From Idiomarina loihiensis L2TR (lineage in GTDB: Bacteria > Pseudomonadota > Gammaproteobacteria > Enterobacterales > Alteromonadaceae): a stretch of DNA of 32,000 nt. Shown one piece after another: positions 372 to 27,942 of the stretch (its first letter is position 1; every line of letters begins with the position of its first letter). The stretch spans positions 1,680,001-1,712,000 of the forward strand of contig NC_006512.1 of assembly GCF_000008465.1 (NCBI RefSeq). The letters run 5' to 3'. The position numbers and the translations under genes were made by a program. A model generated the notes under the pieces. The model was not told the DNA's origin, did no database searches, and worked only from the letters and a program-made list of their open reading frames with translations.

Positions 372-381
372 TTTTTTACTC

Positions 382-1425: not shown

Positions 1426-1626
1426 AGGAATTAGTTAAAAATAGGTGTCCAGTTTAATGCTTCGGTCTTTTCGGTACCAGTTAATATTTGTAAAACCAGC
1501 CCTTAACAGACTCATTTTATGAGTGTAAATGGCGCTAAAAAATTAAGCTTAACTAAATGCGCTTTTATAATTTCTGCTAAGATGCTTAGCTCCTATGCAA
1601 ATAAAGACGCCATTAAGAGGTAATTA

Positions 1627-2562: not shown

Positions 2563-2588
2563 AACTTGAGTTAACTTCGAATATTAAT

Positions 2589-2619
2589 GTGTTGGCAGCT
2601 GTTTTCACGCTGCCAACAC
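2589..2619. terminator. Perfect 11-bp inverted repeat between convergent genes (probable bidirectional terminator hairpin)
   Basis: GTGTTGGCAGC (2589-2599), loop tgttttcac, GCTGCCAACAC (2609-2619). It lies between the stop of the dehydrogenase (2562) and the stop of the MORN gene (2648). The flanking ATTAAT arms extend the stem. There is no clean T-tract. Confidence 0.5.
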
Positions 2620-2647
2620 GTATTAATCAAGGTTAATAAGCTTTCGT

Positions 2648-4372
2648 TTAAGGGAATTCACTCAGTTCAAATTCATCCTCAAAGCGCTCCTCTTTCAACC
2701 GGCCATCCTCGTAAACCGAGATTGAAAACGGTTGCCCTGACTGAGTATAAGACCAGCTTTTTCCATGTCGCCTGTCTCTCTTATACTCGCTGATATTGTA
2801 TAACGCGCCTTCATCAGTGAAGTTGACAACAATACCGTCCAGGTAGCCTTCACTATCGAATGACTCAACGCCACGCAAGTAACCTTGTGGAGAGTAAGTA
2901 CGCCACTCCCCTACTTTAACGCCGTTTTCATAGCTTCCCCGGGATATTTCATAAGGCGCATAGCCAAGAGCAACTTGCCACTCTCCCTCGCGTTTCCCTT
3001 CGACATACTTGCCTTCAACAACGATTTCACCGTCGGCGTATTCCTGATAAGTCCCGTCTAACAAGTCGTCTTTATAGTGCTCGCGTAAACGCAAATCACC
3101 ATTTTCACCATAGACTTCACGGACACCATCAAGCTTACCCTCTTGGTCGTAATGCTCGTTTATCTCACCGTAGCTGTCTTTTGAAACCCATTCACCGACT
3201 TTCTTACCATGGTCGTATTCACCGGACGTCGTAACCTTTCCGTCTTTATCCGTTATCGTATAAGGCCCATGCCGTTTACCTTCAACGAAACGAACTTTTT
3301 CCAGACCATTTCCATATCGGGAAATATAAAGGCCATGCAGATCGTAGCCTTTAAACTCGCGGCGGTCTCGCACGTTTCCATCTTCGTCATAGCTTTCGTT
3401 TAACCGCCAGCTATTATCAACAGCTTGACGATTTAAGCGAGTCAGTTGCTCCGAGTCGTTGTACCATTTTTTCTCTTCGACTAAACCATGCTCAGCGGTT
3501 TCAACATGTTCCATTGAGCGTGTTAACTGACCGCTTTCATCATAGCTACGGGATGTAAGCAGCTTTCCATCATCGTTACGCTTTTCATATTGCCTTAGCT
3601 CGCCGTTCTCGTAATACAGCTTAGTTTCGCCTACTCGTTTACGATTTTTATATTCTTGCGTTCGTTTAACCGAACCATCCTCATAATAGTCCGTTGACAA
3701 ACCATTGAGCACACCGTCCTTATAAAAGGATTCTTTAACCAAATTCCCTTCAAAGTCCCAACGTTTTCCTATTCCTTGCTCAACATCATCTTTATATTCA
3801 GCTTCATACTTAACCTGACCATTTTCATAATAATGACGCATCAAACCATTACGTTCACCGTCTTTCATGGTTTTTTCGGTCAATAAGTAACCTGTCGACG
3901 CATAAGTTCTGTAAGGTCCATTGAGCTCACCATCTTTATAGGTCATCTCACGTTTTTTATGACCATTTTTGGAGTAAACGGTGGTTTCACCTTGCTGTTC
4001 ACCATTAGTATCCCGCTGACCTTCCGATCTTAAAACACCAGATTCAAAGTAGGTTTTATACGGCCCAATCGCTATGGCCTCAGCAAAATTAAGGGAATCA
4101 GCACCGGTTTCATAATAAGGCCCGCCATCAATGTAGTTGATATACAGGCGAAAACCGTCGTCTGTTTTTTCTACTTTATCTAATAAATATTCGGCTTCAC
4201 TTCTGTCATCTGTTGGCTGTAATTCATCATCCAGCCATTTAATTGACTTCTCAGCTTCAGCCACTGTTTTCGGCACTTCATTATTCTGACCATTTTGCTC
4301 GGCAGAAAATGCAAAGGCATTAGACACAATTAAACTGGAAGCGATAGCAAAAAGTACTTTACTGAAAGTCAT
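2648..4372 (-). CDS. Secreted MORN-repeat-variant (YwqK-like) repeat protein
   Basis: 574-aa ORF with signal peptide MTFSKVLFAIASSLIVSNAFA. Many tandem ~23-aa repeats of the form Y(Y/K)xNG/DGxx...G are present (YYENGQVKYEAEYKDD, YYEDGSVKRTQEYKN, YYENGELRQYEKRND, YKDGELNGPYRTY, and others). Confidence 0.8.
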   Translation of the reverse strand: MTFSKVLFAIASSLIVSNAFAFSAEQNGQNNEVPKTVAEAEKSIKWLDDELQPTDDRSEAEYLLDKVEKTDDGFRLYINYIDGGPYYETGADSLNFAEAIAIGPYKTYFESGVLRSEGQRDTNGEQQGETTVYSKNGHKKREMTYKDGELNGPYRTYASTGYLLTEKTMKDGERNGLMRHYYENGQVKYEAEYKDDVEQGIGKRWDFEGNLVKESFYKDGVLNGLSTDYYEDGSVKRTQEYKNRKRVGETKLYYENGELRQYEKRNDDGKLLTSRSYDESGQLTRSMEHVETAEHGLVEEKKWYNDSEQLTRLNRQAVDNSWRLNESYDEDGNVRDRREFKGYDLHGLYISRYGNGLEKVRFVEGKRHGPYTITDKDGKVTTSGEYDHGKKVGEWVSKDSYGEINEHYDQEGKLDGVREVYGENGDLRLREHYKDDLLDGTYQEYADGEIVVEGKYVEGKREGEWQVALGYAPYEISRGSYENGVKVGEWRTYSPQGYLRGVESFDSEGYLDGIVVNFTDEGALYNISEYKRDRRHGKSWSYTQSGQPFSISVYEDGRLKEERFEDEFELSEFP

Positions 4373-6687
4373 TAATTGGCCTCCTGTAAAGATTCAAAAT
4401 CAGGCATAGGGGGCAGTTGGTGAGTCCATTCTTTTGTTACCGGGTCACCTTTAGCAATAAGTTGCTCAACTTTGTCTACTCGCCCACCAATACGTAAAAA
4501 ACCGTCATCGGACACAAATTCACTAAACTCTGAATTTAAGTAGTCGACAGAATAGCCTCCATCGTTCTGCGGCAAGACTGCTAACGCCTTTCCTTTGGCG
4601 TTCAAAAAACGATATTTTCTTAAGAACTCACTCATAGCAACTTCAGCTTGCTGTTCGTCCCAGTCTTCCCCCAGCAAAGATTCAACCGGAATCATCCAGC
4701 TCTTTTCACCTAAGGCAATATCGACTGGCTGCCATTCCGGCTGCCCGTCACAACGAAGCTCTAAGGCTACTTCAGTATCATAAAAAAAACGCTGCACACC
4801 ATCGTCTGTCATTAATTGATAGACCACTTTTTTCGGCATTTTTAAATGCGAAACAACATTACGTCTATTGGGATCAGCGTTTTCTCTCATGACCCGCTTG
4901 TGTTTATTTCCCTTACTTTTAGCCTCGGTATTCAACTCACAAACACCCGCCTGTTCAGGGCTTAGAGTTAAGTACAGCTGAGCTCGGTCAAAACTGGTAG
5001 GCTCTAATTCATCCAATGTCGATGTCGAGAACTCAAGATCCCGGTCATTAACTGAGACTGCCATCTCATCCGACTTGAACAAAGGAACGGTATCAACCGG
5101 GGCAATTGAGGTATCACTTCTAAGCGTTTCTTCATCATAAAAAACAATTTTCTTCTCAGAAGTTTTATTGTCTGTAACACGGTTGAATTTAAGTTCAATT
5201 GTCTCAGGCAATTCGTCCTCAAAAGCTATTCTCAGAGTTACCGCATAGTCGCCTCGTTTGGCAATAGCTAAAGCGCGGCTCTCTGCACTAGATACCCAGT
5301 TAGGTGCCGATGCATCTGTGTCGTAATTTAAAACTGCCCGGCTAACCCCATTTATCTGACTATCGAAATAAGAGTCATTAGTGGCTGTTAATTTCAGTTC
5401 AAACTCTTTGTCCTTTTTAGTGGGAGTCAAAATCGCTTTAGCGCCATGCATTTCTATGCTCGAGCCGTCTTTATCTATTGGAAACTCAACAATTTCATAG
5501 CTTGTTTCATAGCGTTCCAGAGTCGCTTCTATTGATGTCATTTGCTCAAGATCATCAACGACATCTGTCCAGCCCAAAGGGAGTAAATGTATTAACGTTT
5601 CTGATTTTTCGTTACGACTGTCTGTATAGGTGAAAACCCCGTTTTCATGAAGCTTAATATCAAGAGCATCCCCTTTACTATCTTTAGCGATAAGGTCTTT
5701 CACTTTTATCGACATCGAGCCCATACTTTCAAAACTTACCCCGGGATGGCTATATGTCAAAGAAATACGACCGCCGTAAAAATCCATTTTTCCTGAGTCA
5801 TTAGCTAATACTTCTGCATCGGTCGCTTTGTTGTTTGAGTTAAGTTCGCTAAAGTCTGTATTATCGATGGTAAAAGGCTCGTCATAACCTAAATGCTCGA
5901 GGTTCTGACCATACAGCCAGTCTTCAGGGAAAATTGACGTCACCATTCGCATTGAGCCATCAGATACCGCAGCTTCTTCAGGAAGAGGCATATCCATAAT
6001 CATGGTTAAACGCTGAGTCCAGCCAGTGTCACGTTCCAGCACAACGTAGCCGAACACTTTTGCCTCATTATTTTCACCTGAAGCAGATAAGGTCACCGTG
6101 CTGTCAGTAAAGTCTTCAACCGTAAAGGTAATTTCAGGTAAAGGACTTTTGAGTTCTAAAACCTGAGTCGCGCCTTTTTCAACTTTTAAGTCATTAATAA
6201 AACCCGGGCGCCCCAACTCATCATTTAATATTTCCTGCAAAGGGTCTATTCCCTGCTTGCGGAAGTCCTCAGGCTCTTCATGAATAGTAAAGTCCACCAT
6301 TGCACTGGTGTCTTTATCAATATCAACCGTGAACCCGGCATCCATCATTTTCCGAATGCTATCGCCAGAACTTCCACGACCGTCATCTTCAAAGCTCGTG
6401 AAATCACCCTGAGGAAATTCCATCCTCATATACTGGGGTCTCATTCTTATACTGTAGATATCCGGTTTATCGGACACTTCATAGTCCAGTAACATCATAG
6501 TTTTGAGTCTTTCTGAACGGTTGCCGTAATGCTTACTCTCAACCTTGATGTTGGTATCCGAGTACATTTGATACCGTCGCTGCTCACCGTCATCGGGGTT
6601 AAACGATAAGGTCTTTGGAGGGCCGCTTTCAGAACAAGCTACAACAAGAAGAGCTGAAAAAGCCACGAATGATAGACGCCCTAACAT
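4372..6687 (-). CDS. Large lipoprotein, function unknown
   Basis: 771-aa ORF with signal peptide plus lipobox (MLGRLSFVAFSALLVVAC|SES). The stop TAA (4374-4372) shares nt 4372 with the ATG of the downstream MORN gene (TAATG overlap). I recognise no catalytic or family motif. Confidence 0.75.
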   Translation of the reverse strand: MLGRLSFVAFSALLVVACSESGPPKTLSFNPDDGEQRRYQMYSDTNIKVESKHYGNRSERLKTMMLLDYEVSDKPDIYSIRMRPQYMRMEFPQGDFTSFEDDGRGSSGDSIRKMMDAGFTVDIDKDTSAMVDFTIHEEPEDFRKQGIDPLQEILNDELGRPGFINDLKVEKGATQVLELKSPLPEITFTVEDFTDSTVTLSASGENNEAKVFGYVVLERDTGWTQRLTMIMDMPLPEEAAVSDGSMRMVTSIFPEDWLYGQNLEHLGYDEPFTIDNTDFSELNSNNKATDAEVLANDSGKMDFYGGRISLTYSHPGVSFESMGSMSIKVKDLIAKDSKGDALDIKLHENGVFTYTDSRNEKSETLIHLLPLGWTDVVDDLEQMTSIEATLERYETSYEIVEFPIDKDGSSIEMHGAKAILTPTKKDKEFELKLTATNDSYFDSQINGVSRAVLNYDTDASAPNWVSSAESRALAIAKRGDYAVTLRIAFEDELPETIELKFNRVTDNKTSEKKIVFYDEETLRSDTSIAPVDTVPLFKSDEMAVSVNDRDLEFSTSTLDELEPTSFDRAQLYLTLSPEQAGVCELNTEAKSKGNKHKRVMRENADPNRRNVVSHLKMPKKVVYQLMTDDGVQRFFYDTEVALELRCDGQPEWQPVDIALGEKSWMIPVESLLGEDWDEQQAEVAMSEFLRKYRFLNAKGKALAVLPQNDGGYSVDYLNSEFSEFVSDDGFLRIGGRVDKVEQLIAKGDPVTKEWTHQLPPMPDFESLQEAN

Positions 6688-6813
6688 AAGCTTCCTTAAA
6701 ATTTATAAATGAATATGAATAAAGTCATATGATAAGCAGTATTAAATTTTGGCTCAATACAGTCCTCAGGCCTTAACAGATTCTTTACACTGATAACTCA
6801 ATTAGGTGATTAC

Positions 6814-7164
6814 TTAATATGACCAGTCGCCCTGTTCTTCCACCAATACAGTCTCATTATTTTGAATAACCTGAAGCAAACCTGATTCAAAAACTTTATA
6901 AGTCGTATTTCCGTTTTTGAATTGATATCCCTGAAAACGGCAAGGAGTCACTCCGTCAGCACAAAGTGAATGCAGTGTTTTGCCTTTAAGTTCTATGCGG
7001 TTACCTGATATTTTCGAGACTCCGACATAACTCACGTTATCGCATGTGACAGAGCCTTCCTGACAGTGACGCTCAATTTCAACAATATAGTGTTCTGTTG
7101 TCAGCGTATCTCCAAATGCTGCACCAGATAATATGAATACACTTAATAACATAAATTTTTTCAT
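6814..7164 (-). CDS. Small exported protein with four Cys, function unknown
   Basis: 116-aa ORF with signal peptide MKKFMLLSVFILSGAAFG. Four Cys fall in two C-x6-C pairs (CQEGSVTC and CADGVTPC). The ATG (7164) directly abuts the benE stop TAG (7167-7165). Confidence 0.65.
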   Translation of the reverse strand: MKKFMLLSVFILSGAAFGDTLTTEHYIVEIERHCQEGSVTCDNVSYVGVSKISGNRIELKGKTLHSLCADGVTPCRFQGYQFKNGNTTYKVFESGLLQVIQNNETVLVEEQGDWSY

Positions 7165-8211
7165 CTACTTTTCCCTGCTTACATTACTCAGAAAATAATA
7201 ACCGGCCAAACCAATTAATAAGCCCCAGAATGAACTGTTAATACCTAAGAAATTGATGCCGGATGCTGTAACAATAAAAGCCATAACCGAAGCCAGCAAA
7301 GTCTCTTCATGACTAAATGCCTGGCGGAAATTAACAGCAAGCACCGGTAACAAAGCTAAGCCAGCCAGAGCCGATGTCGCTTCGGTTGGTAAAGCCAGAA
7401 ACAACCCAACAATTAATGACCCGGCAAGCCCGGCAATGATATAGAAGACGCCGGCCGCCATAGCTGCTTTGTAACGCTGACTACGATCGGTATCGGCATC
7501 TGCGGTTTGACAAATAGCGGCGGTAATTGCGGCCAGGTTTATTGCGAAAGCCCCAAGCGGAGCCATAATGACACCGAATAATCCGGTCACCCGTAACAGC
7601 GGCGACAGTGGCACCGCATAGCCATTACTGCGCAGCATCATAATGCCCGGCAGGTTCTGGGAAACCATAGTGACAACATATAAAGGAATCCCAACTCCAA
7701 CCAGTAAAGAGAAGTTAAACTCAGGCCATACCCAGACCCAATCGGGGGCGGAGACAATCAACTGGCTTGCATCAAACTGCTTTGTCAGCACCGGCAAGCC
7801 CACTGCAGCCAGCAACACCCAGAAAAAAACCAGCTTAGGTGTCAGCTTCCGCATCACAAAATAAACAATGACTAAAGTTGCAGTAATTAAAGGCTGATTA
7901 TCAAAGGCCGGAACTAAAGCCAACACAAACTTAAGTAAAATGCCGGCCAATATAGCAGCCGCTATTTCGACCGGAATGTATTTTAATAGCCGGTCAGAAA
8001 TACCGCTTAGGCCACTAAGTAAAATTAAACCCGATGAAAAAATGAAAATGCCGACCGCCTCGGCGACTGAAACACCGGCAAGGGCTATAATGAGCAGGGC
8101 AACACCCGGTGTAGACCATGCCGTCAGTATCGGGGCTTTGTACCGCCACGAGAGAAGAATACTGCTTAGCCCCATAGCTAAACCTAAGGCGAGCAACCAG
8201 GAACTCTGCAA
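7165..8211 (-). CDS. benE: Benzoate/H+ symporter BenE-family transporter (main body; the N-terminal helix is in another frame, see next feature)
   Basis: The 348-aa polytopic membrane ORF is co-linear with E. coli BenE as I recall it (ALGLAMG...P(I/V)LTAWSTPG(A/V)ALL..., VTMxSQNxPG, AAITAAICQ, FWGL). The track start at 8211 is a TTG with no SD. The true N-terminus is upstream in a different frame. Confidence 0.8.
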   Translation of the reverse strand: MQSSWLLALGLAMGLSSILLSWRYKAPILTAWSTPGVALLIIALAGVSVAEAVGIFIFSSGLILLSGLSGISDRLLKYIPVEIAAAILAGILLKFVLALVPAFDNQPLITATLVIVYFVMRKLTPKLVFFWVLLAAVGLPVLTKQFDASQLIVSAPDWVWVWPEFNFSLLVGVGIPLYVVTMVSQNLPGIMMLRSNGYAVPLSPLLRVTGLFGVIMAPLGAFAINLAAITAAICQTADADTDRSQRYKAAMAAGVFYIIAGLAGSLIVGLFLALPTEATSALAGLALLPVLAVNFRQAFSHEETLLASVMAFIVTASGINFLGINSSFWGLLIGLAGYYFLSNVSREK

Positions 8212-20068: not shown

Positions 20069-20917
20069 CTAACGGCGATCAAAGTAAGACTGCTCATTAA
20101 GCGTTTTATAAACACCTTCTATATTCTGAGGCAGCCACTCGTTGTACATTTTTAAATCGGAAAATTCATCAAGCTTTATGTCCTGCTGAAGTGTTTCCAA
20201 ACTTTTGCCAGCCAACATACCGTCGCGAACCTCAGCATATAAGGCTTCCAAATAGCTCAAATAGCGCTCGACATCCTTACCCGTTCCCATTTCTGCATGA
20301 GCACCAACAAACACATCAAATGGCTTTTCCTCTAACACGGCTTTTGTCGAGCGTATCATTCCGTGAATGTCATAGCCCGGAAGCGTTTGGTAAGGCATGC
20401 GATCCAGCACAATCCAGTCAGCCACGAACAGTACATTCTCAGGCATAAAGCGCATGCTAACAGAACCTCGACCATTATTCGGGCCGTAATATTTCATTTG
20501 AACCGATTGTTCACCAAGCTTAATAGTCAGCTCGTCACTAAACGTCATTGTGGGCAAAGCGGTCGGTGTTTTTGTCCAACGCAAATCCTCATCGGCGTAT
20601 TCATGCGCAATAACATCAACACCTTCTGAAGCGAATACCTCACCACCTAACGTATGGTCAACATGGTTATGGCTATAAGCCAGGTAACGCACTCGCTGAT
20701 CAAAGCGTTCTGATAACTCATTTTTAAGGTATTGAGCCGCGTCTTTGTTGATTGGATCAGTAACAAAAATGCCCTGCTCCGTTACCATAAACACTGAATG
20801 ATAATGATCCGCCGAGAACCGATAAACATTGCCCTTAACCTTTTCAATAGCGTAGTCAGCTGCCATTACCGTCGTGCAAGCACTGAACCATAAAGCCAGA
20901 GTCAGAAATAGTCTCAT
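20069..20917 (-). CDS. Exported MBL-fold metallo-hydrolase
   Basis: 282-aa ORF with a signal peptide (..TTVMA). The HxHxDH motif appears as YSHNHVDHTLGG, and later His/Asp ligands (IAHEY, GAHAE) are present. Confidence 0.8.
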   Translation of the reverse strand: MRLFLTLALWFSACTTVMAADYAIEKVKGNVYRFSADHYHSVFMVTEQGIFVTDPINKDAAQYLKNELSERFDQRVRYLAYSHNHVDHTLGGEVFASEGVDVIAHEYADEDLRWTKTPTALPTMTFSDELTIKLGEQSVQMKYYGPNNGRGSVSMRFMPENVLFVADWIVLDRMPYQTLPGYDIHGMIRSTKAVLEEKPFDVFVGAHAEMGTGKDVERYLSYLEALYAEVRDGMLAGKSLETLQQDIKLDEFSDLKMYNEWLPQNIEGVYKTLNEQSYFDRR

Positions 20918-21323
20918 TACTTATTGCTCCTCAAGCGAGTTGACCTTTGCAGTATAAAAACGCTTAGCACACCTAATGAATAGTCTTTCACGTTAGCTGC
21001 TAATTCTGCATTGTTCCAGAAACAAGAATCGTATCTTTCTCAAACTAACCGAATAGTGGCCGGCAGTTTTGATGCTCACTTACCTCCGCAATATTGCTTA
21101 CTTTATTATTGTGTTGTGTATTTAACTCGTTTAAGGTCAATTACATAATAAAAACGAAAATTAGATATTGTGCACTCGTTAGACTAGAAATGAGCATGCT
21201 CGAATTGCTTTGCCTGCTTTCGGCGGGCTTTTTGAAAAATAAATTGAGTTATTAAAGGGTTCGAAGAAAAAAGAAGAAATTTAATGAAAGTCGAAGTGCG
21301 CATGCACAATATATAAATGTTAA

Positions 21324-21698
21324 ATGCCTATGAAAGCACCATGTCAATGCAAAGAATCTCCAGAGCTTGTCGACTTGAGCAAAGAGGGAAAGGAGCTCGT
21401 AGCGGAATTCTCAGAGTTAGATGTCGGCAACTGGGTTTACTTGATGAAATGCCCTACCTGCGGGCAGTTGTGGCGCGTGGATGAGTGGGACAAATACCAG
21501 CCGCAGTATGCCGTTAAGCTCCCTACTTCCGAGAATTGGCAAGCTTTTGAAGCAATTCCACTTATCAAGAAAAAGATAGTAGAAAACAGAGGTGGTATTT
21601 CGGAGCAGTTGTGCATGTGGCGCAATTGCAATGAAAAGCAGGTAAATGGTTCGGCTTTTTGCGTAGATCATCTGTACGAGACTGGTGCGCGAAGCTGA
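21324..21698 (+). CDS. Cassette 1: Cys-rich zinc-ribbon protein, unknown function
   Basis: 124-aa ORF (or 122 aa from the ATG at 21330). Cys pairs are CQC...CPTC (zinc-ribbon-like), and there is a C-terminal C-x4-C-x10-C-x2-H. No SD is visible. Confidence 0.6.
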   Translation: MPMKAPCQCKESPELVDLSKEGKELVAEFSELDVGNWVYLMKCPTCGQLWRVDEWDKYQPQYAVKLPTSENWQAFEAIPLIKKKIVENRGGISEQLCMWRNCNEKQVNGSAFCVDHLYETGARS

Positions 21699-21702
21699 AA
21701 GC

Positions 21703-21789
21703 ATTTAACCAATCAATTAAGTTCGTTCCCGGCCTGGCGGCCGTCCACCGGACACCCCTGACGGGCCGCCGCTTATTTCAGCGTTGTGC
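21703..21789 (+). repeat. attC site 1
   Basis: R'' is ATTTAAC (21703-09) and R' is GTTGTGC (21783-89). The inner boxes are AATTAAG and CTTATTT, with 5- and 4-nt spacers. The central GC-rich stem pairs GGCGGCCGTC with GACGGGCCGCC and has one extrahelical G. Confidence 0.8.
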
Positions 21790-21813
21790 TCAATATAACC
21801 AAAGGGGCGTTTA

Positions 21814-22599
21814 ATGTTTTCTGATTTGTTTGCTTCTAGTAGAAGTGTCTTTAAAGAACGTGTATCCAGCCCACTCTATGGGGCAATTGTTATTTCATGG
21901 TTATTATGGAACTGGCAAATTCCTTACTTAACACTGTTTGTAAGTGAGGAAAATCTTGATAGTGACAAAATATCCTGGATTGCTGAAAATCATAGCAACT
22001 GGGTGTTGTTAGTACTTTACCCTGCGCTCTCGGCATTCGCCCTTGTTCTTGTTATGCCATTCTTTACAAATGGTGCCTATTGGGTAAGTCTTCGATTCCG
22101 AAAATGGCGAATCGACTCACAACAATCCATAGAAAAGAAGACGCTCCTTACACTTGAACAGTCAATCGCTCTTCGGGAGGAAGTCCTGGCCCAGGAAGAG
22201 CGAATTGAAAAAATGCTCGAGGCAAAAAATCGAGAAATTAAGCAATTGAGCACTCAAATCGCAGATTTAGAGGATAGGTTGAAGTCAGAGGATGAATCAG
22301 AAGAAGCTAGACAGACTCGGACAGAAAAGCACAGCCCGCATTATGTAGATGATGATGAAAATGCCAAAGAACTGGCAAAGAAGATTTTTAATAGCCATAA
22401 GGCTAATAAAACCTTTGAGAAAGCAATAGAGTTTATTCAAGGTGGATATTCAGGCCTGCTTCAAGAGAATGAAGTCGACTCAAGGTCATTAGCGTTTCTT
22501 GAGGCTAATAACGTGATTGAAAACACTGGTGAAGGGCAGTACCGCTTTTCGGATTTTGGAAAGAAGGTTCTCCGAGTGTATACGGATTTTGAAATTTGA
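21814..22599 (+). CDS. Cassette 2: membrane-anchored coiled-coil protein, unknown function
   Basis: 261-aa ORF with an AAGGGG SD. It has two TM helices (YGAIVISWLLWNW and VLLVLYPALSAFALVLVMPFF) and a charged heptad-like segment (LEQSIALREEVLAQEERIEKMLEAKNREIKQLSTQIADLEDRLK). The C-terminal ~80-aa globular part has a winged-helix-like appearance. Confidence 0.7.
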   Translation: MFSDLFASSRSVFKERVSSPLYGAIVISWLLWNWQIPYLTLFVSEENLDSDKISWIAENHSNWVLLVLYPALSAFALVLVMPFFTNGAYWVSLRFRKWRIDSQQSIEKKTLLTLEQSIALREEVLAQEERIEKMLEAKNREIKQLSTQIADLEDRLKSEDESEEARQTRTEKHSPHYVDDDENAKELAKKIFNSHKANKTFEKAIEFIQGGYSGLLQENEVDSRSLAFLEANNVIENTGEGQYRFSDFGKKVLRVYTDFEI

Positions 22600-22604
22600 A
22601 AATG

Positions 22605-22696
22605 GCACAACAAAGGGCTCAACCGGACGTCGGAACAGGTTTGGCGGCAAAGCCTGGTAAACTCAGTTGCGGCGCCGGTTAGCCTAGACGTTACCT
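22605..22696 (+). repeat. attC site 2
   Basis: The layout is canonical. R'' is GCACAAC (22605-11), followed by a 4-5-nt spacer and L'' GGGCTCAACC (contains GCTCAAC at 22617-23). L' is GGTTAGCC (22677-84), followed by the 5-nt spacer TAGAC and R' GTTACCT (22690-96). Confidence 0.85.
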
Positions 22697-22709
22697 TTAT
22701 TGAGGAGGC

Positions 22710-23288
22710 ATGGTGGAAGCTAATTATTGGCAGTACTATCTTTCGTTTGAGGAAGATGTTGATCGCCTTTTTCGCTACATCGAACCCGCGGAGTACAACT
22801 TTACCGTTTACTCGGTAGAACTAACTCGGTTGTACTTGGCAATATGTTCCGAAATCGACGTAATACTAAAAGCATACTGCAAGCTCCTCGATGAGGGCTC
22901 TAAGCCGTCAAATATTAACGAATATGCGGAAATGGTCGTTTCATCGAAGAAAGGGTTGTGTTCTGAGACTGTCAATTTTCAGAGATTCGGAGTTTCAATG
23001 ACGCCATTTTCAGAGTGGAAGCAGTCGTCCACGCCAACTTGGTGGAAAAAGCATAATGGTGTAAAGCACAACCGGAACGTCAACTTTAAGGACGCTAATC
23101 TGGGTAACGTTCTCAACGCGTTTGCAGCATTGTACTTGCTAAACCTTTACTACTACCAAGAACGACGCTGTATCGAGCTGCAAGAACAAGGGTTCTCCGA
23201 GTCGCTCGAGGAAACGGCAGCTTCACTGAAGTCGCGTTTAGATGTACTTAGAATAGATAGTGTTTGGCTAAGCTTTATGGAAAGGTAA
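22710..23288 (+). CDS. Cassette 3: 192-aa helical protein with a W-W-K-K-H-N-G-V-K-H-N-R patch, unknown function
   Basis: The ORF has GAGGAGG immediately upstream, and its stop TAA is embedded in the attC inverse core (GGTAAC). There is no TM segment and no family assignment. Confidence 0.7.
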   Translation: MVEANYWQYYLSFEEDVDRLFRYIEPAEYNFTVYSVELTRLYLAICSEIDVILKAYCKLLDEGSKPSNINEYAEMVVSSKKGLCSETVNFQRFGVSMTPFSEWKQSSTPTWWKKHNGVKHNRNVNFKDANLGNVLNAFAALYLLNLYYYQERRCIELQEQGFSESLEETAASLKSRLDVLRIDSVWLSFMER

Positions 23289-23366
23289 CAAAGCCAATCA
23301 CGGCGACGCCCGCTACATTTCGGCTTCGTCTTTATTTCGTAGCCGCGCATGTTGGCGGCGTTATAC
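23283..23366 (+). repeat. attC site 3
   Basis: R'' is AGGTAAC (23283-89), followed by spacer AAAGC and L'' CCAATCA... L' is ...CATGTTGG, followed by spacer CGGC and R' GTTATAC (23360-66). An internal CGCTAC/GTAGCCG stem is present. Confidence 0.8.
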
Positions 23367-23381
23367 ACAAAGGATTAAGCA

Positions 23382-24407
23382 ATGGAGTCAATTCCACCAT
23401 ACGAAGGAAAACCTACTGTTTACCTTGATCAGAATGTTTTAGATTTCTTCACGAAACAAGGATTGGGTGAGTTTGGGCAAATGCTTTTAGAAGATTATCA
23501 AGTAGTTTACTCAGATGAAACACTCAAGGAAATTCGGCGTTCTAAAGGTTTTGAAGAAAACTTTCTCAACGTACTCAAAGATCTGAAAGCTTACCATTTA
23601 AAGCTAATTGTTGAGCAGCCAAACTTCACGATCACCGACAACGCCACAATATGTAAACGTGATCCTTATGATATCTATAAGCAGTACTGTGAAAGTTGTG
23701 ACGATGGTCTCGACATAGAATATGCAATGCAACAATCATTGTTCAAGTTTTCTGGTGGAAGAAAGGGGGAAAGTCTTAACGATATTCATAACGAACAGGT
23801 CGCCGCATTCTCCGAGCTAATGGATTCATTAATGGATATCTCTGACGAGTTACCTGAAGAGATACAAAAACAATTGCAAGTCTATGGTGAGGAGATGACT
23901 TCTCAATACAAAGCAACATTAGCAAAAACTGAAAATATGATGCTTGAGAGTATTGAAGATGATAGAAATTGGGATGGTATTAAAGACTTCCGGTTAGCGC
24001 TCGGAATTGGTCCCATGCAACTTAATAATATTGATCCGCCGGATGTACTTGTAAAAATTTGGGATAAACTAAGAGCGCTCCCAGCTTATAGTCAAGCAAA
24101 CATGGATATAGAAGATTTTTTTCAATTAAAAAAGCATCCGATTTACCCAGAGCAACCTTACTTCAAGCACCAAAAAGTGACGGTTATTTATAATATGCTA
24201 AATACTTTGGGATATTATCCAGACTCAAAAGTACACAAAGAAAGACGGTTCATTGCTGCTGTAAGTGATAACAGTCACGCATCCATAGCCTCATTTTGTA
24301 ATTTCCTCGTGTCCAACGATGAATACTTTATTAAAAAGGTTAATGCCGCATATGAATATCTTGAAGTGCCAACAATAGCAAATCAGGTGGTTTTCAATTA
24401 TGCATAA
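23382..24407 (+). CDS. Cassette 4: 341-aa protein with split PIN-like nuclease signature
   Basis: AAGGA SD 7 nt upstream of the ATG. The N-terminus reads PTVYLDQNVLDFF, followed by VVYSDETLKEI (first Asp and Glu of a PIN fold). The C-terminus reads AAVSDNSHASIASFCNFLVSNDEYFIKK, matching the PIN pattern D-x3-a-x2-A-x6-LV(T/S)-x-D-x2-F with 17-residue D-to-D spacing. About 240 aa of unassigned sequence lies between them. Confidence 0.7.
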   Translation: MESIPPYEGKPTVYLDQNVLDFFTKQGLGEFGQMLLEDYQVVYSDETLKEIRRSKGFEENFLNVLKDLKAYHLKLIVEQPNFTITDNATICKRDPYDIYKQYCESCDDGLDIEYAMQQSLFKFSGGRKGESLNDIHNEQVAAFSELMDSLMDISDELPEEIQKQLQVYGEEMTSQYKATLAKTENMMLESIEDDRNWDGIKDFRLALGIGPMQLNNIDPPDVLVKIWDKLRALPAYSQANMDIEDFFQLKKHPIYPEQPYFKHQKVTVIYNMLNTLGYYPDSKVHKERRFIAAVSDNSHASIASFCNFLVSNDEYFIKKVNAAYEYLEVPTIANQVVFNYA

Positions 24408-24461
24408 CAAAGCGTTTAAGCAAAGACGCAGCCAGCTGCGTCACTTATCTTTGCGTTACAA
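24402..24461 (+). repeat. attC site 4 (short; 3' boundary less certain)
   Basis: R'' is GCATAAC (24402-08) and overlaps the stop codon. The stem pairs GCAAAGACGCAG with CTGCGTCACTTATCTTTGC, with bulged bases. The R' candidate is GTTACAA (24455-61). An alternative pairing of the two CAAAG copies makes the box assignment ambiguous. Confidence 0.6.
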
Positions 24462-24480
24462 ACAACCGGAGTCTTAAGCT

Positions 24481-24861
24481 ATGAATCTGAACCAGGTCAC
24501 CTTGCCCGTCACCAATATGGAAAAGGCTACGGAGTTCTATCGCAAGATGGGGTTCCTTCAAATTGTAGATACTCCACACTACGCCAGATTTGAATGCCCG
24601 GAGGGAACGTCGACGTTCTCCCTTTCATTGGATGATTCTGGGGGTTCAAATAAGAGCGTGATTTATTTTGAACACCAAGAGCTTGACGACCTTGTTGCCG
24701 AGTTGAAGTCCAAAGGACTTGAATTTGATCAAGAGCCAACGGATATGCGGTACTTATGGCGCGAGGCCATACTCCATGATCCCTCCGGCAACAAAATCAA
24801 ACTGTACTGGGCAGGTGAGAATCGTCTAAATCCGCCGTGGCGAGTTGAGCTCGGTGCATAA
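24481..24861 (+). CDS. Cassette 5: VOC-family (glyoxalase / bleomycin-resistance / dioxygenase fold) protein
   Basis: 126-aa ORF with a GGAG SD. It shows the beta-alpha-beta-beta-beta module pattern (VTLPVTNMEKATEFYRKMGF ... ILHDPSGNKIKLY) typical of the VOC superfamily. Confidence 0.8.
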   Translation: MNLNQVTLPVTNMEKATEFYRKMGFLQIVDTPHYARFECPEGTSTFSLSLDDSGGSNKSVIYFEHQELDDLVAELKSKGLEFDQEPTDMRYLWREAILHDPSGNKIKLYWAGENRLNPPWRVELGA

Positions 24862-24932
24862 CAAACCAATGTTGGCTGCCTCGGAAGCGTGGTACACGCA
24901 CAAATAATAACTCTGCCCGACAGTAGTTAAAA
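24856..24932 (+). repeat. attC site 5 (distal, degenerate; 3' boundary uncertain)
   Basis: R'' is GCATAAC (24856-62), followed by spacer AAACC and L'' AATGTTGGC. The central hairpin is GCGTG-gta-CACGC. L' is GCCCGACA and the R' candidate is GTTAAAA (24926-32). Confidence 0.5.
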
Positions 24933-25017
24933 CTCTGAAGGCCGTAATTAATTGGTATTCAAGCCCTGAGTTTCAGGTTGGTGACATTCGTTCAGGACAA
25001 ATTGTGGTGAAGACTCA

Positions 25018-27942
25018 TCAAAACTGCCCGCTTACCCCAAGCAAGAACGTTCGTCCGTTAGAAGTTGTGTTGTAAGCGCGGTCACTGGAATCACTGTAAA
25101 GCTCTTCGCGGACGTTGGTCAGGTTCAGGGCTTCTAGGGTTAACTTAAAGTTATCAGACAGTTGGTAATGAGCGGCTGCGTCAACGTAGGTGGTGTCGTG
25201 GTAACCGGATTCATCCTGGTCGGTATTCCCCGCCTGAACCGACAAAATGTAGTCACTGCGGTAGGCCGATGAGATACGCGCTGACCAGTCTTCAGCTTCA
25301 TAATAAAAGGTCAGGTTATAGCTTTGGTTTGAGAGTCCGGCAAAGGTCTTTACCTGATTCTCACCGGTGCCCTGCACGTCGCGGTACAGCGTATCGCCGT
25401 CTGCCCAGGTGTAGTTGGCAATCATGCCGAGTCGGTTGAAGGGCTCAGGCAGAAAATCAAAATCCCGCGAGAACGCAAATTCAGCGCCCTGAATAACAAA
25501 AGAATCGGAGTTTTCCGGTGTGGTGACAATAAATAAGTCGTCTACAGACTCCCCTTCCTGCAGCAAGGCTTCGGGAAGCCCTAAACTGCCGTAACGTAAC
25601 AGCTCAGTTTTTTCGACAATGAAGTTATCAATATTTTTATGAAACAGCGCTAAGGATATAAACCCTTGCTTATTAAAATACCATTCAATAGCAGTGTCTA
25701 TGTTTATCGATTCGAACGGCTGCAGAAAGGGGTTCCCTAATCCTATTGAACCAATGTCGCCGTCATCGCGCGAGGCCTGCGACACATTCGCAGAAAAGGA
25801 CAATTTATCTATAGAAGGCCGGGTAATATTTTTGCTCGCTCCAAAGCGCCATAAAACATTATCGGTAATATCCAGAACCATATTCAGGCTGGGTAACCAA
25901 TCGGAATAGTCTCTCTCTATTTCCGTGTAAATGCCTTTTGAGATACCAGCAGAAGACAGAGTTGTCTCGAAAAAACGCGCACCGGTACTCAAAAGCAGTG
26001 TTTTACCAAACATTTGCGTATCAAAATCGAAAAGAAAATAGGCAGCGTCCGTTTCCTCCTCCACCGAATAATTAGACGTATCAATAATAGACTCTTCACC
26101 CAATCTATAGCCCGCTAAACCGTAGTGTTGCTGAAGCTGAGCTAAGTCACCCTGCAACCAGTTGAAGTCGGGGTGTTGAGTATAAACATCCGTATACTCA
26201 GGTGGTAAAAACAAATTGCCTTCGTTTTTGGGCGTCAGGCCGTTGGTCGGAAAGTCTCCCTGTACTCGTTCATGCCCGTCATTTGACAGTTTCTTATGAC
26301 TGACACCCAGCTTCAGAGAGTTTTGAGGCGTTAATCGGTAGTCGAAATCAGCTTTAAACGTGAGCATATCCGAAGAAATCTCGTTTTCCTGAAAGTAGAG
26401 GTCTTTCACCCGAAACGCTGTTGGGTTAGTAGTATCAAATTCAGGTGAACGACTAAGGCCATAAAAGCGATCCTTCCTAAAGTCGGTAATAATATCCACG
26501 CCGTCGGTAATAATGTTGACCTTGTTCAGCTTAGGCTGCCGGTAGTCAGACGAATTAACTCCAAGGAGAAAATTAAACGAAGCATCGGGGCTTGTTTGCC
26601 AAAAGGACTTAAAGGTTATTTGTTTAAATTCCGATTCATTATAGTCCAGCCGGGTTTCAGCTCGCCATGTCGCGTCCTTATATTCGGCATAAACCACTTC
26701 TTTTTCACTGTCATTATTCACCCATTCCAGAGCTTTAACCTGACGGTTATTTTTTACCGCAATATGGTGTTCATCTAAATCGTTGGTCAGTCGGTTCAAT
26801 AAAATATCAACTGTGCTGATAAAATTCTCACTCGGCTGATATTGCAGCGAAGCGGTAATTCCCAGCCGAGTCTGGTTATTATTCCAGAGCGAATAACGGT
26901 GCCCCCGGGGAAACCAGAACTCCCCGTTAGCTAATTTCTCTGACAGAGCAGGATTATCCGGCCCAACATAAGTTTTATTTTCTTTTCGCCAGCGCGTGGT
27001 GTTGGTTCCATATTCAGTTGTGTGCCGTTCACTGTAGGCCATTGATACCAGCGCACCAAAGCTGCCCCAGGTATTCGCTATCATTCCGGCCACACGGGGG
27101 TCGTAATGTTGGCTGTTGGAATTGTAGGCCTGTCGGTAGGAAAAAGCTGACGTAAAATCCTTATAGTCCGCGGGCTTTGGTGTAAATAACTCTACCGTGC
27201 CGCCAATGCCGCCCTCTTCCATACGCGCAGAGTAAGACTTTTTCACATCAATTCGATTAAACAGTTCAGAAGCAAAAATATTAAAGTCGAACGCCCGACT
27301 ACGGCTAACTGAACCGCGGGCATCCATTGGTGATGATGTTATTCCCAACGCTTCCATGCCATTGATATGCACACGGGTGAAGTCCGGTCCCAGCCCGCGC
27401 AGCGATATTTGACGCCCTTCACCGGCTTCCCGGGTAATCGAAATACCGGGTACGCGCTGCAATGAGTCAGCTAAGTTCAAGTCCGGAAAATCGGCAATAT
27501 CTTCGGCCAGTATCGAATCCTGTGACACCATTGCCAGACGCTTATATTCCCGCGCTTTAAATAAAGAGTCACGAAATCCGGTAACAGTAATTTCTTCAAT
27601 AACTTGGTTAACTGGTTTGCTTTCTGCTGCAGGCTGCGGAGACTTAATTATATTGTCCTGACAGGTTTCAACCAACCAGCCGGAGGCGACATTACTCGCG
27701 CATAAGTTGCTATTTTTCAGCAGCTCGTCCAGCAACTCCTGAGCCGTAAACGAGCCTTTTAGTGCCTCGGTGTGTTCATTAGTGACTAAAGCAGGGTCGA
27801 ACAATATGGTCTGGTCGGTTGTGCGGGAAAACTGAGTTAATGCGTCTTTTAAAGGTTGCGCCGCAAAAGTCACATCGAACTTTGTGCCTTCTGCGGCCAG
27901 GGTTAAACTGGAAATAAATAGTAGCCAGCTAAATCTACGCAT
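25018..27942 (-). CDS. TonB-dependent receptor with N-terminal STN signalling domain (FecA-type transducer)
   Basis: 974-aa ORF with a signal peptide. An ~80-aa STN-like extension (FDVTFAAQPLKDALTQFSRTTDQTILFDPALV) is followed by a plug (LADSLQRVPGISITREAGEGRQISLRGLGPDFTRVHINGME), a long barrel, and a terminal ...LLGVSGQF. Confidence 0.85.
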   Translation of the reverse strand: MRRFSWLLFISSLTLAAEGTKFDVTFAAQPLKDALTQFSRTTDQTILFDPALVTNEHTEALKGSFTAQELLDELLKNSNLCASNVASGWLVETCQDNIIKSPQPAAESKPVNQVIEEITVTGFRDSLFKAREYKRLAMVSQDSILAEDIADFPDLNLADSLQRVPGISITREAGEGRQISLRGLGPDFTRVHINGMEALGITSSPMDARGSVSRSRAFDFNIFASELFNRIDVKKSYSARMEEGGIGGTVELFTPKPADYKDFTSAFSYRQAYNSNSQHYDPRVAGMIANTWGSFGALVSMAYSERHTTEYGTNTTRWRKENKTYVGPDNPALSEKLANGEFWFPRGHRYSLWNNNQTRLGITASLQYQPSENFISTVDILLNRLTNDLDEHHIAVKNNRQVKALEWVNNDSEKEVVYAEYKDATWRAETRLDYNESEFKQITFKSFWQTSPDASFNFLLGVNSSDYRQPKLNKVNIITDGVDIITDFRKDRFYGLSRSPEFDTTNPTAFRVKDLYFQENEISSDMLTFKADFDYRLTPQNSLKLGVSHKKLSNDGHERVQGDFPTNGLTPKNEGNLFLPPEYTDVYTQHPDFNWLQGDLAQLQQHYGLAGYRLGEESIIDTSNYSVEEETDAAYFLFDFDTQMFGKTLLLSTGARFFETTLSSAGISKGIYTEIERDYSDWLPSLNMVLDITDNVLWRFGASKNITRPSIDKLSFSANVSQASRDDGDIGSIGLGNPFLQPFESINIDTAIEWYFNKQGFISLALFHKNIDNFIVEKTELLRYGSLGLPEALLQEGESVDDLFIVTTPENSDSFVIQGAEFAFSRDFDFLPEPFNRLGMIANYTWADGDTLYRDVQGTGENQVKTFAGLSNQSYNLTFYYEAEDWSARISSAYRSDYILSVQAGNTDQDESGYHDTTYVDAAAHYQLSDNFKLTLEALNLTNVREELYSDSSDRAYNTTSNGRTFLLGVSGQF

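Follow-up and report, generated by a model that had tools for sequence, protein, structure and literature searches.

A probable integrase-less integron cassette array in the chromosome of Idiomarina loihiensis

Organization of the locus

The locus lies in the chromosome of Idiomarina loihiensis L2TR, within a window of 32,000 nucleotides (the whole stretch of DNA that was analysed). Five open reading frames (ORFs) follow one another in the same direction on the + strand (21324-21698, 21814-22599, 22710-23288, 23382-24407, and 24481-24861), in agreement with the five co-oriented single-gene units described in a first-pass annotation of this DNA. Each unit of the array consists of a promoterless ORF followed by an attC site. 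The features of the locus are as follows:

20931-21318, no strand: left flank, kept in both array-bearing sister genomes; ends at the junction ...ATATATAAAT G|TT
21319-25014, + strand: integrase-less cassette array of five co-oriented single-ORF cassettes
21320-21783, + strand: cassette 1; starts with the TT behind the junction G and ends with the G of the following R'
21703-21789, + strand: attC1, 87 nt; ATTTAAC-CAATC-AAT-T-AAG ... CTT-ATT-TCAGC-GTTGTGC
21784-22690, + strand: cassette 2, ORF 21814-22599, 261 aa
22605-22696, + strand: attC2, 92 nt; GCACAAC-AAAGG-GCT-C-AAC-CGG-A-CGTCG ... CGGCG-CCG-GTT-AGC-CTAGAC-GTTACCT
22691-23360, + strand: cassette 3, ORF 22710-23288, 192 aa
23283-23366, + strand: attC3, 84 nt; AGGTAAC-AAAGC-CAA-T-CAC ... 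ATG-TTG-GCGGC-GTTATAC
23361-24455, + strand: cassette 4, ORF 23382-24407, 341 aa
24402-24461, + strand: attC4, 60 nt; GCATAAC-AAAGC-GTT-T-AAG-CAAA-GACGCAGC ... GCTGCGTC-A-CTT-ATC-TTTGC-GTTACAA
24456-24932, + strand: cassette 5, ORF 24481-24861, 126 aa; 3' limit uncertain
24856-24879, + strand: attC5, 5' half only; canonical R''-spacer-L'', GCATAAC-AAACC-AAT-G-TTG
24933-25014, no strand: variable-region tail, unique to the I. loihiensis lineage; no ORF

The left flank includes a terminator-like hairpin (21212-21228, + strand), and the variable-region tail adjoins a convergent gene for a TonB-dependent receptor (25018-27942, - strand) at its stop codon. The cargo comprises one VOC/glyoxalase-family enzyme and four proteins without an assigned function. 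The Cys-rich protein of cassette 1 has 124 or 122 aa, depending on whether its ORF (end 21698) starts at 21324 or at 21330. The cassette 2 protein has a hydrophobic N-terminal region, a charged, apparently coiled-coil middle, and a weakly winged-helix-like C-terminus. Family searches returned no match for the proteins of cassettes 1, 3, and 4, the last of which has homologues spread over distant genera. The enzyme is encoded by cassette 5 (PF00903, E = 3.5e-14); an 83% homologue is a canonical cassette in the metagenomic array L052, where the 5' UTR is the same and the cassette's own R' is perfect, and the start of the window cassette (GTTACAAAC) is diverged. The array L052 resembles a sedentary chromosomal integron.

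Structure of the attC sites

In the hairpin formed by the bottom strand of an attC site, R'' pairs with R' and L'' with L', the spacer between them stays unpaired, and extrahelical bases identify the strand. Integron integrases cleave at G|TT; a cassette leaves as a circle when two attC sites recombine with each other, and it is inserted when an attC recombines with an attachment site.

Direct reading guided by folds gives attC1-4 a common register: AAC and a 5-nt spacer, then two 3-bp segments separated by a single bulged nucleotide on the 5' arm, then the mirror half and GTT. The extra bases sit on the 5' (R''-L'') arm, which bears out the bulged stem bases noted in the first pass. Three stop codons are indeed embedded in inverse cores (TAA at 23286-88, 24405-07, and 24859-61), that of ORF3 within the R'' of attC3. 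The sites are heterogeneous in length (87, 92, 84, and 60 nt) and in sequence (pairwise identity 45-57%), as had been claimed. Other parts of that description need correction. The strict RYYYAAC/GTTRRRY consensus is matched by ATTTAAC (21703) and GTTAAAT (21319) only, the other cores being off at 1-2 positions; the 3' spacers of attC1-4 measure 5-6 nt rather than 4-5 nt; and "GC-rich" describes attC1-3 (GC fraction 0.54-0.59) and not attC4 and attC5 (0.45).

When each is folded with its own R', the hairpins of cassettes 1-3 spontaneously adopt an R box, internal loop, bulged L box, and stem, and the hairpin of cassette 4 reaches the same fold roughly. With its own R', attC1 forms a full hairpin and attC2 the strongest of the five (-28 kcal/mol; z = -3.5 for the top strand of the in-line site). 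The layout of attC4, on direct reading, is that of the aadA7 attC.

An attC site was thought to close every unit, and this is the case for attC1-4. The fifth site as originally drawn (24856-24932) consists of its 5' half only: nothing before 24926, where the proposed GTTAAAA begins, pairs with it, and no L' partner was found ahead of that point. The string CAAATT-GTGGT-GAA (24999-25012), considered as a 3' partner, is probably a chance match because there is no GTT and no stem there. The terminal attC is truncated, and the array end is ragged against the TonB-receptor stop codon.

Covariance models and attC relatives

Two surrogate attC covariance models (R2 and R3), both small, hand-registered, and roughly calibrated, were searched against the window. 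The training set of R3 comprised 18 sites from array L052, both sister Idiomarina loci, and the aadA7 attC, with no site from the window. Among these 18 outside sites the canonical register also holds: the L-box helix is 99% paired (26-43% in slid-register controls), with compensatory changes at 5/6 L-box pairs. R3 also recovers seven attC sites downstream of the annotated integron integrase on plasmid pCHS4.1-1.

In the 32 kb, the five best R3 matches coincide with the proposed sites and all lie on the + strand; three reach significance, and the match to attC5 is partial. The significant sites are attC1 (R3 41.4 bits, E = 1.8e-7; R2 35.7 bits), attC2 (R3 35.2 bits, E = 4.6e-6; missed by the smaller model R2), and attC4 (R3 21.4 bits, E = 0.007; R2 22.9 bits, E = 7e-4). 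Model scores for attC3 are weak (R2 14.1 bits, E = 0.19 in the window and 0.025 in the array; R3 12.9 bits, E = 0.62), and attC5 is matched at 24854-24879 only (9.8 and 11.4 bits with R2 and R3, respectively).

Close relatives of individual sites occur elsewhere. Two attC sites of the complete integron on pCHS4.1-1 are each 81% identical to a window site, one to attC1 with a compensatory L-box change (AAT/ATT versus GCT/AGC) and one to attC3 (CAA/TTG versus CAG/CTG). A Salinivibrio replicon carries a sequence 89% identical to attC3 over 81 nt. Both attC1 and attC2 belong to attC families present in L052 too (attC2 is 74% identical to attC L052_5570). Since attC families are common to the window and a conjugative-plasmid integron, a mobile donor pool exists. 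The heterogeneity of the sites, together with the relatives of each attC elsewhere, suggests that the cassettes were recruited from different sources.

Cassette starts mirror their own cores

Each cassette start can be compared with the inverse core at the end of the same cassette. Cassette 1 begins with GTTAAATGC, whose reverse complement is identical to the cassette's inverse core GCATTTAAC (9/9); the corresponding pairs are GTTGTGC and GCACAAC in cassette 2 (7/7), GTTACCTTT and AAAGGTAAC in cassette 3 (9/9), and GTTATACAC and ATGCATAAC in cassette 4 (7/9), and cassette 5 matches at 6/9. All five counts reproduce those first reported. With the defining GTT/AAC left out, 23/30 variable positions match (binomial P ~4e-9), a level reached by 2/120 permutations of the start-core pairing; in-line neighbours match at 4/24. 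Pooled over the window and the two sister loci, own-core matches amount to 63/72. This correspondence is the circular-permutation signature of past cassette excision and insertion.

One junction in three Idiomarina species

The sister genomes are those of Idiomarina sp. ET05-11 (L011) and I. rhizosphaerae (L020). At this locus, 2.6 kb of L011 contain four different attC-bounded cassettes and a truncated fifth, and 7.3 kb of L020 contain cassettes unlike those of the window. Homology to the window stops at 21325 (L011) or 21318 (L020), at or at most 7 nt from the G|TT at 21319, and restarts at 25015 (L011) or 25017 (L020), that is, at the TonB-receptor stop. A different first cassette follows the same junction in each of the three genomes, and the right ends of the arrays differ as well. 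No cassette common to the window and either sister was found by blastn at E <= 1e-5. One cassette (GTTAAGTACAT...) is common to L011 and L020, where it has different upstream neighbours and is joined exactly at GTT. Content has been replaced cassette by cassette at a fixed G|TT junction that is the same in three Idiomarina species. No recombination event was seen. Among the metagenomic contigs examined, all those that have the identical flank or cassette-1 protein and reach far enough in carry the same cassettes in the same order.

Identity of the array and the missing integrase

[quoted passage not shown] The first-pass annotation had staked this reading beforehand on attC covariance-model hits, which are significant at three sites, and on variability among related genomes, where gene content at the locus differs in L011 and L020 rather than being conserved. 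Its statement that no intI lies within 21 kb upstream or 7 kb downstream also stands: tblastn with two IntI proteins (E <= 10) returned only noise across the 32-kb window, and no tyrosine-recombinase Pfam family matched a window ORF of at least 100 aa. The description "without integrase" thus covers 21 kb before and 7 kb after the array. Neither L011 nor L020 has an IntI or tyrosine recombinase within 10 kb of the locus. The integrase that assembled the array would no longer be its neighbour, having either been lost or acted in trans (e.g., from a transient mobile integron), and the array would now be static in the I. loihiensis lineage unless an integrase is supplied in trans.

Loss of the integrase is the somewhat favoured origin. 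A common ancestor of the three species would have had intI, attI, and cassettes here; intI would then have been cleanly deleted or the array separated, with the arrays diverging afterwards as segments were deleted or exchanged by homologous replacement across the conserved flanks. Only array-bearing genomes have the left flank (20931-21318), which is what arrival together with the platform would predict; L012, L013, L021, L023, and L030 have no such flank upstream of the MBL gene. Ragged right ends indicate that deletions do occur, the position of the divergent gene beside the junction is the usual place of intI, and L020 has an IS110-family element at the junction, IS-mediated rearrangement being a proposed route to CALINs (PMC4889954). 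However, tblastn with IntI at E <= 10 found no intI remnant in the left flank, nor is that flank similar to the attI region of the related plasmid integron. The window and its sisters have no cassette in common by blastn (E <= 1e-5), and a full turnover of the content once intI was gone would require either an integrase at some other place or the wholesale replacement of alleles.

A more tentative possibility is that no integrase gene was ever adjacent. An integrase whose gene lies elsewhere in the genome, or on a mobile integron present only transiently, would have assembled the array at a secondary or attG-like site of the chromosome (...AAATG|TT), and this site would have been used repeatedly in three species. 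Different first cassettes at one junction, the absence of an intI remnant from the left flank (390 bp) and, in all three genomes, from the nearest 10 kb, and the mobile donor pool all favour such insertion in trans, and IntI1, IntI2, and IntI3 insert cassettes at genomic 5'-GWT-3' (10.1101/2022.09.11.507474). Yet a simple attG model predicts an intact attC at the right end, and all three right ends are truncated or consist of non-cassette DNA. The last 60 nt ahead of the junction are, moreover, the least conserved part of the flank in the alignment with L011 and L020. There is no empty site to compare: in relatives free of the array, the left flank and the MBL-TonB adjacency are missing too.

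That the palindromes between ORFs are ordinary terminators or REP-like repeats with chance core matches is highly improbable: folding energy alone fails to separate the attC hairpins from other AAC...GTT-bounded folds in the window, the stem at 24425-24442 also fits a terminator-like pattern, and an Rfam search was negative (though Rfam apparently has no attC family), but own-core complementarity, strand-specific model matches exactly at the proposed sites, the ~81% identity of attC1 and attC3 to sites of an annotated integron, cassette-by-cassette replacement at G|TT in sister genomes, and the lack of a T-run past the stem in attC1-3 all argue against it.

Comparison with known systems

Like sedentary chromosomal integrons such as the Vibrio cholerae superintegron, the CALIN of I. 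loihiensis is chromosomal and lineage-stable, with co-oriented cassettes without known function and the same attC architecture. Unlike them, the window has no intI, only five cassettes, and heterogeneous attC sites instead of a homogeneous repeat family.

The mobile integron with a marine-type IntI on the Providencia rettgeri IncC plasmid pCHS4.1-1 (NZ_OL908906.1) shares with the window the canonical register and the two attC sites ~81% identical to attC1 and attC3. In contrast to the window, it has intI, an attI region, and resistance cassettes (dfrA, erythromycin esterase); no common cassette coding sequence and no attI-region similarity were detected between the two.

Insertion at attG has been shown experimentally (in E. 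coli, with single cassettes) and is a proposed origin of small CALINs (10.1101/2022.09.11.507474). The array resembles such secondary-site insertions and SALINs (Loot et al., 10.1101/2022.09.11.507474) in its start at a genomic G|TT, its small size, and its lack of an integrase and of a recognisable attI. It differs in being a multi-cassette array at one junction in three species and in a right end that is not the predicted intact attC.

With CALINs (Cury et al. 2016, PMC4889954; Neron et al. 2022, PMC9024848) the window has in common two or more attC sites spaced by less than 4 kb and the lack of intI within 4 kb. Published examples average five attC sites of low similarity, with mostly unknown cargo and no nearby intI pseudogene (PMC4889954). 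The window agrees in having about five attC sites with within-array similarity of 45-57%, cargo mostly without a known function, and no neighbouring intI pseudogene. There is no difference in kind; the extra features here are the different arrays at one integrase-less junction in three species and the truncated terminal attC. The array is a typical CALIN, a known class of element, and its sole unusual point is the shared integrase-less junction.

Organization of the cassette array

The array that extends from 21319 to 25014 is an integron cassette array without an integrase in cis, as the first-pass annotation had proposed. It lies between a divergent gene for an MBL-fold hydrolase on the left and a convergent gene for a TonB-dependent receptor on the right, the latter being followed by FecR and ECF-sigma genes. 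Between 21324 and 24861, five open reading frames run in one orientation, each with a candidate attC site behind it. The window sequence matches Idiomarina loihiensis CP005964.1 (GCA_000401175.1) at 100% identity.

Flanking genes and proposed attC sites (window coordinates)
20069-20917, minus strand: MBL-fold hydrolase gene (PF00753), left of the array, divergent
21703-21789, plus strand: attC1, 87 nt
22605-22696, plus strand: attC2, 92 nt
23283-23366, plus strand: attC3, 84 nt
24402-24461, plus strand: attC4, 60 nt
24856-24932, plus strand: attC5 as first drawn, 77 nt
25018-27942, minus strand: TonB-dependent receptor gene, right of the array, convergent

The stop codons of ORF3, ORF4, and ORF5 are, as read from the sequence, embedded in the inverse core (..TAAC), in agreement with the first-pass annotation. 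The cargo is largely uncharacterised: four of the five cassette proteins are without a known family (for proteins 1-4, no Pfam, NCBIfam, or PADLOC match exceeds the threshold, and the NCBIfam and defence-system scans gave sub-threshold matches only), and the cassette-5 protein is a VOC/glyoxalase (PF00903, E = 3.5e-14).

Despite having no known family, the cassette-4 reading frame (23382-24407; 341 aa) has homologues 48-84% identical in Colwellia, Gynuella, Ferrimonas, Morganella, Idiomarina piscisalsi, Chlorobium, and Marinobacter (e.g., loci L032, 8001-9026, and L036, 1551-2576). Resolvase, HNH, and DEAD-helicase genes adjoin the homologue in one contig. The Colwellia homologue retains the cassette 5' UTR and has no attC after it, and therefore has no bearing on cassette mobility. 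Possibly, the cassette-4 gene is a mobile gene with an accessory or defence function.

Cassette starts and their own inverse cores

In an attC site the inverse core (R'') and the core (R') enclose the inner pairing boxes (L'' and L'), and the own R' of a cassette is its own start. The matches reported between the first nine bases of each cassette and the reverse complement of its own inverse core are reproduced exactly (9/9, 7/7, 9/9, 7/9, and 6/9). When the defining GTT/AAC bases are left out, 23 of 30 positions still match (binomial P = 4e-9), versus only 4 of 24 for the in-line neighbour, and the own-core total is reached by just 2 of 120 permuted pairings. This signature fits what is expected from cassettes that were once circular and were opened at G|TT.

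A relative of the VOC gene in the metagenomic cassette array L052 is a canonical cassette and an 83% homologue of cassette 5; its 5' UTR is that of the window copy, its own R' matches perfectly (GTTATGCAC / GTGCATAAC), and it is closed by an intact attC of about 60 nt. Because this homologue has a perfect own R', the weak 6/9 match of cassette 5 is read as that of a diverged old copy.

Anatomy of the attC sites

All five proposed sites are bracketed by an R'' ending in AAC and an R' starting with GTT, the GTT of attC5 being doubtful. The RYYYAAC / GTTRRRY consensus first ascribed to the cores holds strictly at 21703 and 21319 only; the other cores are off at one or two positions. By hand reading, attC1-4 follow one register, which consists of AAC, a 5-nt spacer, 3 bp, a 1-nt bulge, and 3 bp and, beyond the centre, 3 bp, 3 bp, a 5-6-nt spacer, and GTT.

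L boxes of the four intact sites
attC1: AAT-T-AAG / CTT-ATT
attC2: GCT-C-AAC / GTT-AGC
attC3: CAA-T-CAC / ATG-TTG
attC4: GTT-T-AAG / CTT-ATC

Minimum-free-energy folds closed with the own R' give, for cassettes 1-3, an R box, an internal loop, a bulged L box, and a stem; the fold of cassette 4 gives the expected attC hairpin only roughly. The base bulged after the first 3 bp of L'' is T, C, T, and T in attC1-4 (hand reading and folds), and extra bases beyond the bulge are found in attC2 (A) and attC4 (CAAA). In attC sites, the bottom strand, which is the recombinogenic one, is marked by extrahelical bases confined to one arm. In attC1-4 such bases occur on the R''-L'' arm only (the 5' arm of the top strand) and are a candidate strand mark of this kind. 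The attC of aadA7 has the same layout as attC4.

The register of attC1-4 also describes 18 attC sites from outside the window, in which the L-box helix is 99% paired and five of the six L-box pairs have compensatory changes; when the partners are slid by 1-3 columns, pairing in these 18 sites is only 26-43%. The heterogeneity claimed for the array stands because identity among the four intact window sites is only 45-57%.

The fifth site is not supported as first drawn. Its 5' half is canonical (GCATAAC-AAACC-AAT-G-TTG), and that half has no pairing partner upstream of the GTT at 24926. Three candidates for the 3' half (GTT at 24926, ATTGG at 24951, and CAAATT at 24999) were considered, none of them convincing. 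The GTT at 24926 is probably not the R' of attC5, which is treated here as a truncated terminal site.

Covariance models of attC sites

Two surrogate attC covariance models were trained without any window sequence: R2 on six sites from the sister loci and the aadA7 attC, and R3 on 18 sites, 11 of them from L052. When the 32 kb were scanned with R3 on both strands with filters off, the best five matches were the five proposed sites, all on the plus strand. In its scan of the window R2 missed attC2, matched attC5 only in part, and gave 35.7 bits for attC1 (E = 2e-7), 22.9 bits for attC4 (E = 7e-4), and 14.1 bits for attC3 (E = 0.19); these E-values, like those of R3 listed below, are only approximate, given a shortened calibration and small models.

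R3 matches in the window (E-values rough)
attC1: 41.4 bits, E = 1.8e-7
attC2: 35.2 bits, E = 4.6e-6
attC4: 21.4 bits, E = 0.007
attC3: 12.9 bits, E = 0.62
attC5: 5' half only, E = 1.3

The Providencia rettgeri plasmid pCHS4.1-1 served as a positive control for R3, which detects seven attC sites there (E = 6e-10 to 0.013), downstream of an annotated integron integrase. Rfam yields no match of any kind at the gathering threshold in the whole window or at E <= 1 in the array, a null result that is uninformative because Rfam gave no attC match and appears to hold no attC family.

Several other approaches were rejected. An ungapped inverted-repeat finder missed the bulged attC stems. Energy ranking of all AAC...GTT-bounded folds made only attC2 distinct, terminators and coding hairpins being equal to the other sites. 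A simple pairing descriptor was too permissive (dozens of matches per 32 kb) and missed attC1, attC3, and attC4. Owing to misaligned centres, RNAalifold derived no consensus structure from attC sites aligned simply with MAFFT, and with N-masked centres MAFFT misaligned the site ends. An earlier model (R1), made from trimmed attC ends only, had a best match of E = 2.4, its skip penalty for the variable centre being too heavy.

Relatives of the attC sites

Matches between the array and plasmids (blastn) are confined to the VOC gene and attC sites. Over the full site, attC1 and attC3 of the window share about 81% identity with two attC sites of the pCHS4.1-1 integron, a figure that rises to about 88% in the cores aligned by blast; the L-box differences are compensatory (AAT/ATT vs GCT/AGC; CAA/TTG vs CAG/CTG). 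Within L052, attC2 is 74% identical to one attC and attC1 is 70% identical to another. Judged by sequence, each window site is a member of an attC family found elsewhere. Through its attC families, which recur in a resistance integron carried by a conjugative IncC plasmid from clinical Providencia, the array ties the marine cassette pool to clinical plasmids.

The pCHS4.1-1 integron (NZ_OL908906.1, an IncC plasmid; 1179-7800) is complete with seven attC sites, and its cargo includes dfrA and erythromycin-esterase cassettes. Its integrase belongs to a marine gammaproteobacterial IntI clade, with closest named relatives in Oleiphilus, Vibrio, Paraglaciecola, and Moritella (63-68% identity). L052 (ENA ERZ1757541 contig_4010, 1-6859) is a long array of the sedentary-integron type with at least 11 attC sites, most with the L boxes GCT-C-AAG / CTT-AGC; one of its cassettes lies in the opposite orientation and has an antitoxin-like domain (PF09720).

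The junction in sister genomes

Variation among related strains between the MBL hydrolase and the TonB receptor, which the first-pass annotation had proposed as a check, is present in two sister genomes. In Idiomarina sp. ET05-11 (L011; MBL protein 96% identical), homology to the window runs until 21325 and returns from 25015; the 2.6 kb between these points carry four other cassettes (own-core matches 9/9, 10/10, 10/10, and 8/8) and a fifth truncated inside its ORF. In I. rhizosphaerae (L020), homology runs until 21318 and returns from 25017, and the 7.3 kb between contain an IS110-family element and five other cassettes together with some genes that belong to no cassette. The starting point of the array is the same in all three genomes, ...ATA(T/C)AAAT G|TT, and a cassette common to L011 and L020 (GTTAAGTACAT...) has different neighbours ahead of it, the joint falling exactly at GTT. 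Both the homology breaks at the junction and the shared-cassette joints are consistent with integrase recombination at G|TT.

More distant Idiomarina (L012, L013, L021, L023, and L030; MBL proteins 80-86% identical) have neither the array nor its 390-bp left flank. Within the window's own lineage, the order of the array is fixed in all metagenomic contigs that have an identical MBL or cassette-1 protein and reach far enough. A 30-nt divergent tail directly after the GTT of attC1 in contig L005 was considered as a recent rearrangement and set aside as a probable assembly artefact, because other contigs have odd tails of this kind (24-30 nt) at arbitrary places.

Both sister genomes that carry an array also conserve the left flank (20931-21318, 390 bp from the MBL gene to the array), of which the last 60 nt are the least conserved part. 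A terminator-like hairpin with a T-run lies on the plus strand at 21212-21228, about 85 nt ahead of the first cassette. The flank has no Rfam match, its fold z-score is only -1.1, and it may represent a small transcript, an insulator, or an integron-platform remnant.

The right ends of the variable region (window 24933-25017; L011 6935-6960; L020 2249-2290) differ in all three genomes, and each comes to within a few bases of the stop codon of the TonB receptor. Just ahead of this stop codon, L011 and L020 have CTTAAATCA, which is absent from the window and resembles the TTAAAT that opens the first cassette of the window and L011. These two first cassettes (window 21319-21327; L011 9595-9587) have unrelated ORFs and attC sites, yet both begin GTTAAAT; their own inverse cores end ATTTAAC, an R box absent from the other 10 cassettes examined. 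The common R box may be a coincidence, or the junction may prefer such an R box.

The IS110-family element of L020 (8217-9544) lies 3 nt to the left of the array-opening GTT, at a junction that corresponds to window positions 21318 and 21319. Its transposase has 341 aa (NF033542, E = 3.5e-108), and its subterminal inverted repeats are 13 bp long (TATGGACGCTCCC / GGGAGCGTCCATA). The element recalls the IS1111-attC group, which targets integron sites.

Integrase, attI, and promoter searches

Searches by tblastn (E <= 10) with IntI1 and the pCHS4.1-1 IntI gave only noise in the window and all fetched loci. Tyrosine-recombinase Pfam domains (PF00589 and PF13495) are absent from window ORFs of at least 100 aa, and no entry named Idiomarina is among the best 120 homologues of the marine-type IntI. 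When the left flank was compared with the attI region of the related plasmid integron, no similarity emerged. A promoter scan upstream of the array stayed at background level, with no convincing candidate.

Origin of the array

Integrase loss or rearrangement in a common ancestor is the favoured origin, at a probability of roughly 0.55. Three features fit this origin: a left flank specific to the clade, ragged right ends, and the insertion sequence at the L020 junction. Assembly of the array in trans at a genomic attG-like site is a good deal less probable; it would agree with the repeated use of one junction and with the finding of no intI remnant, and trans insertion at a genomic site has been shown experimentally for single cassettes (10.1101/2022.09.11.507474). 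However, a simple trans model predicts an intact attC at the right end, and this is absent from all three right ends.

It is unlikely that the junction ...ATATATAAAT G|TT by the MBL-fold hydrolase gene is an "orphan" attachment site at which trans-supplied integrases (for instance from plasmid integrons with a marine-clade IntI that are present only transiently) built and replaced arrays repeatedly in at least three Idiomarina species, even if the IS110-family element of I. rhizosphaerae, 3 nt away from the crossover, fits a recombinase-recognised site. Were it true, the chromosome would keep a working cassette dock without the cost of a resident integrase. Whether ancestral integrase loss or trans insertion at a genomic site is responsible, one integrase-less junction with different arrays in three Idiomarina species is a natural test of the origin and turnover of clusters of attC sites lacking an integron-integrase (CALINs).

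Comparison with known integron systems

In the literature on Idiomarina and integrons, no paper on the array was found. In contrast to a complete integron, which has intI, attI, and Pc next to the first cassette, the array has no intI. It is also unlike a sedentary chromosomal integron, which has more than 19 homogeneous attC sites and a resident intI, as it has five sites, 45-57% identical, and no intI. A CALIN is defined by at least two attC sites with no intI within 4 kb (PMC4889954), successive sites being less than 4 kb apart. Here, four intact sites and one half site lie 0.45-1.1 kb apart, and no integron integrase is found within 4 kb on either side, so the definition applies. The array also fits the published CALIN profile of about five attC sites, low attC similarity, cargo of unknown function, and no nearby intI pseudogene (PMC4889954). 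It is an ordinary CALIN of a kind already known, and one more well-dissected case in a class already catalogued genome-wide; the IntegronFinder screening dataset comprises 21,105 complete RefSeq genomes (10.1101/2022.09.11.507474).
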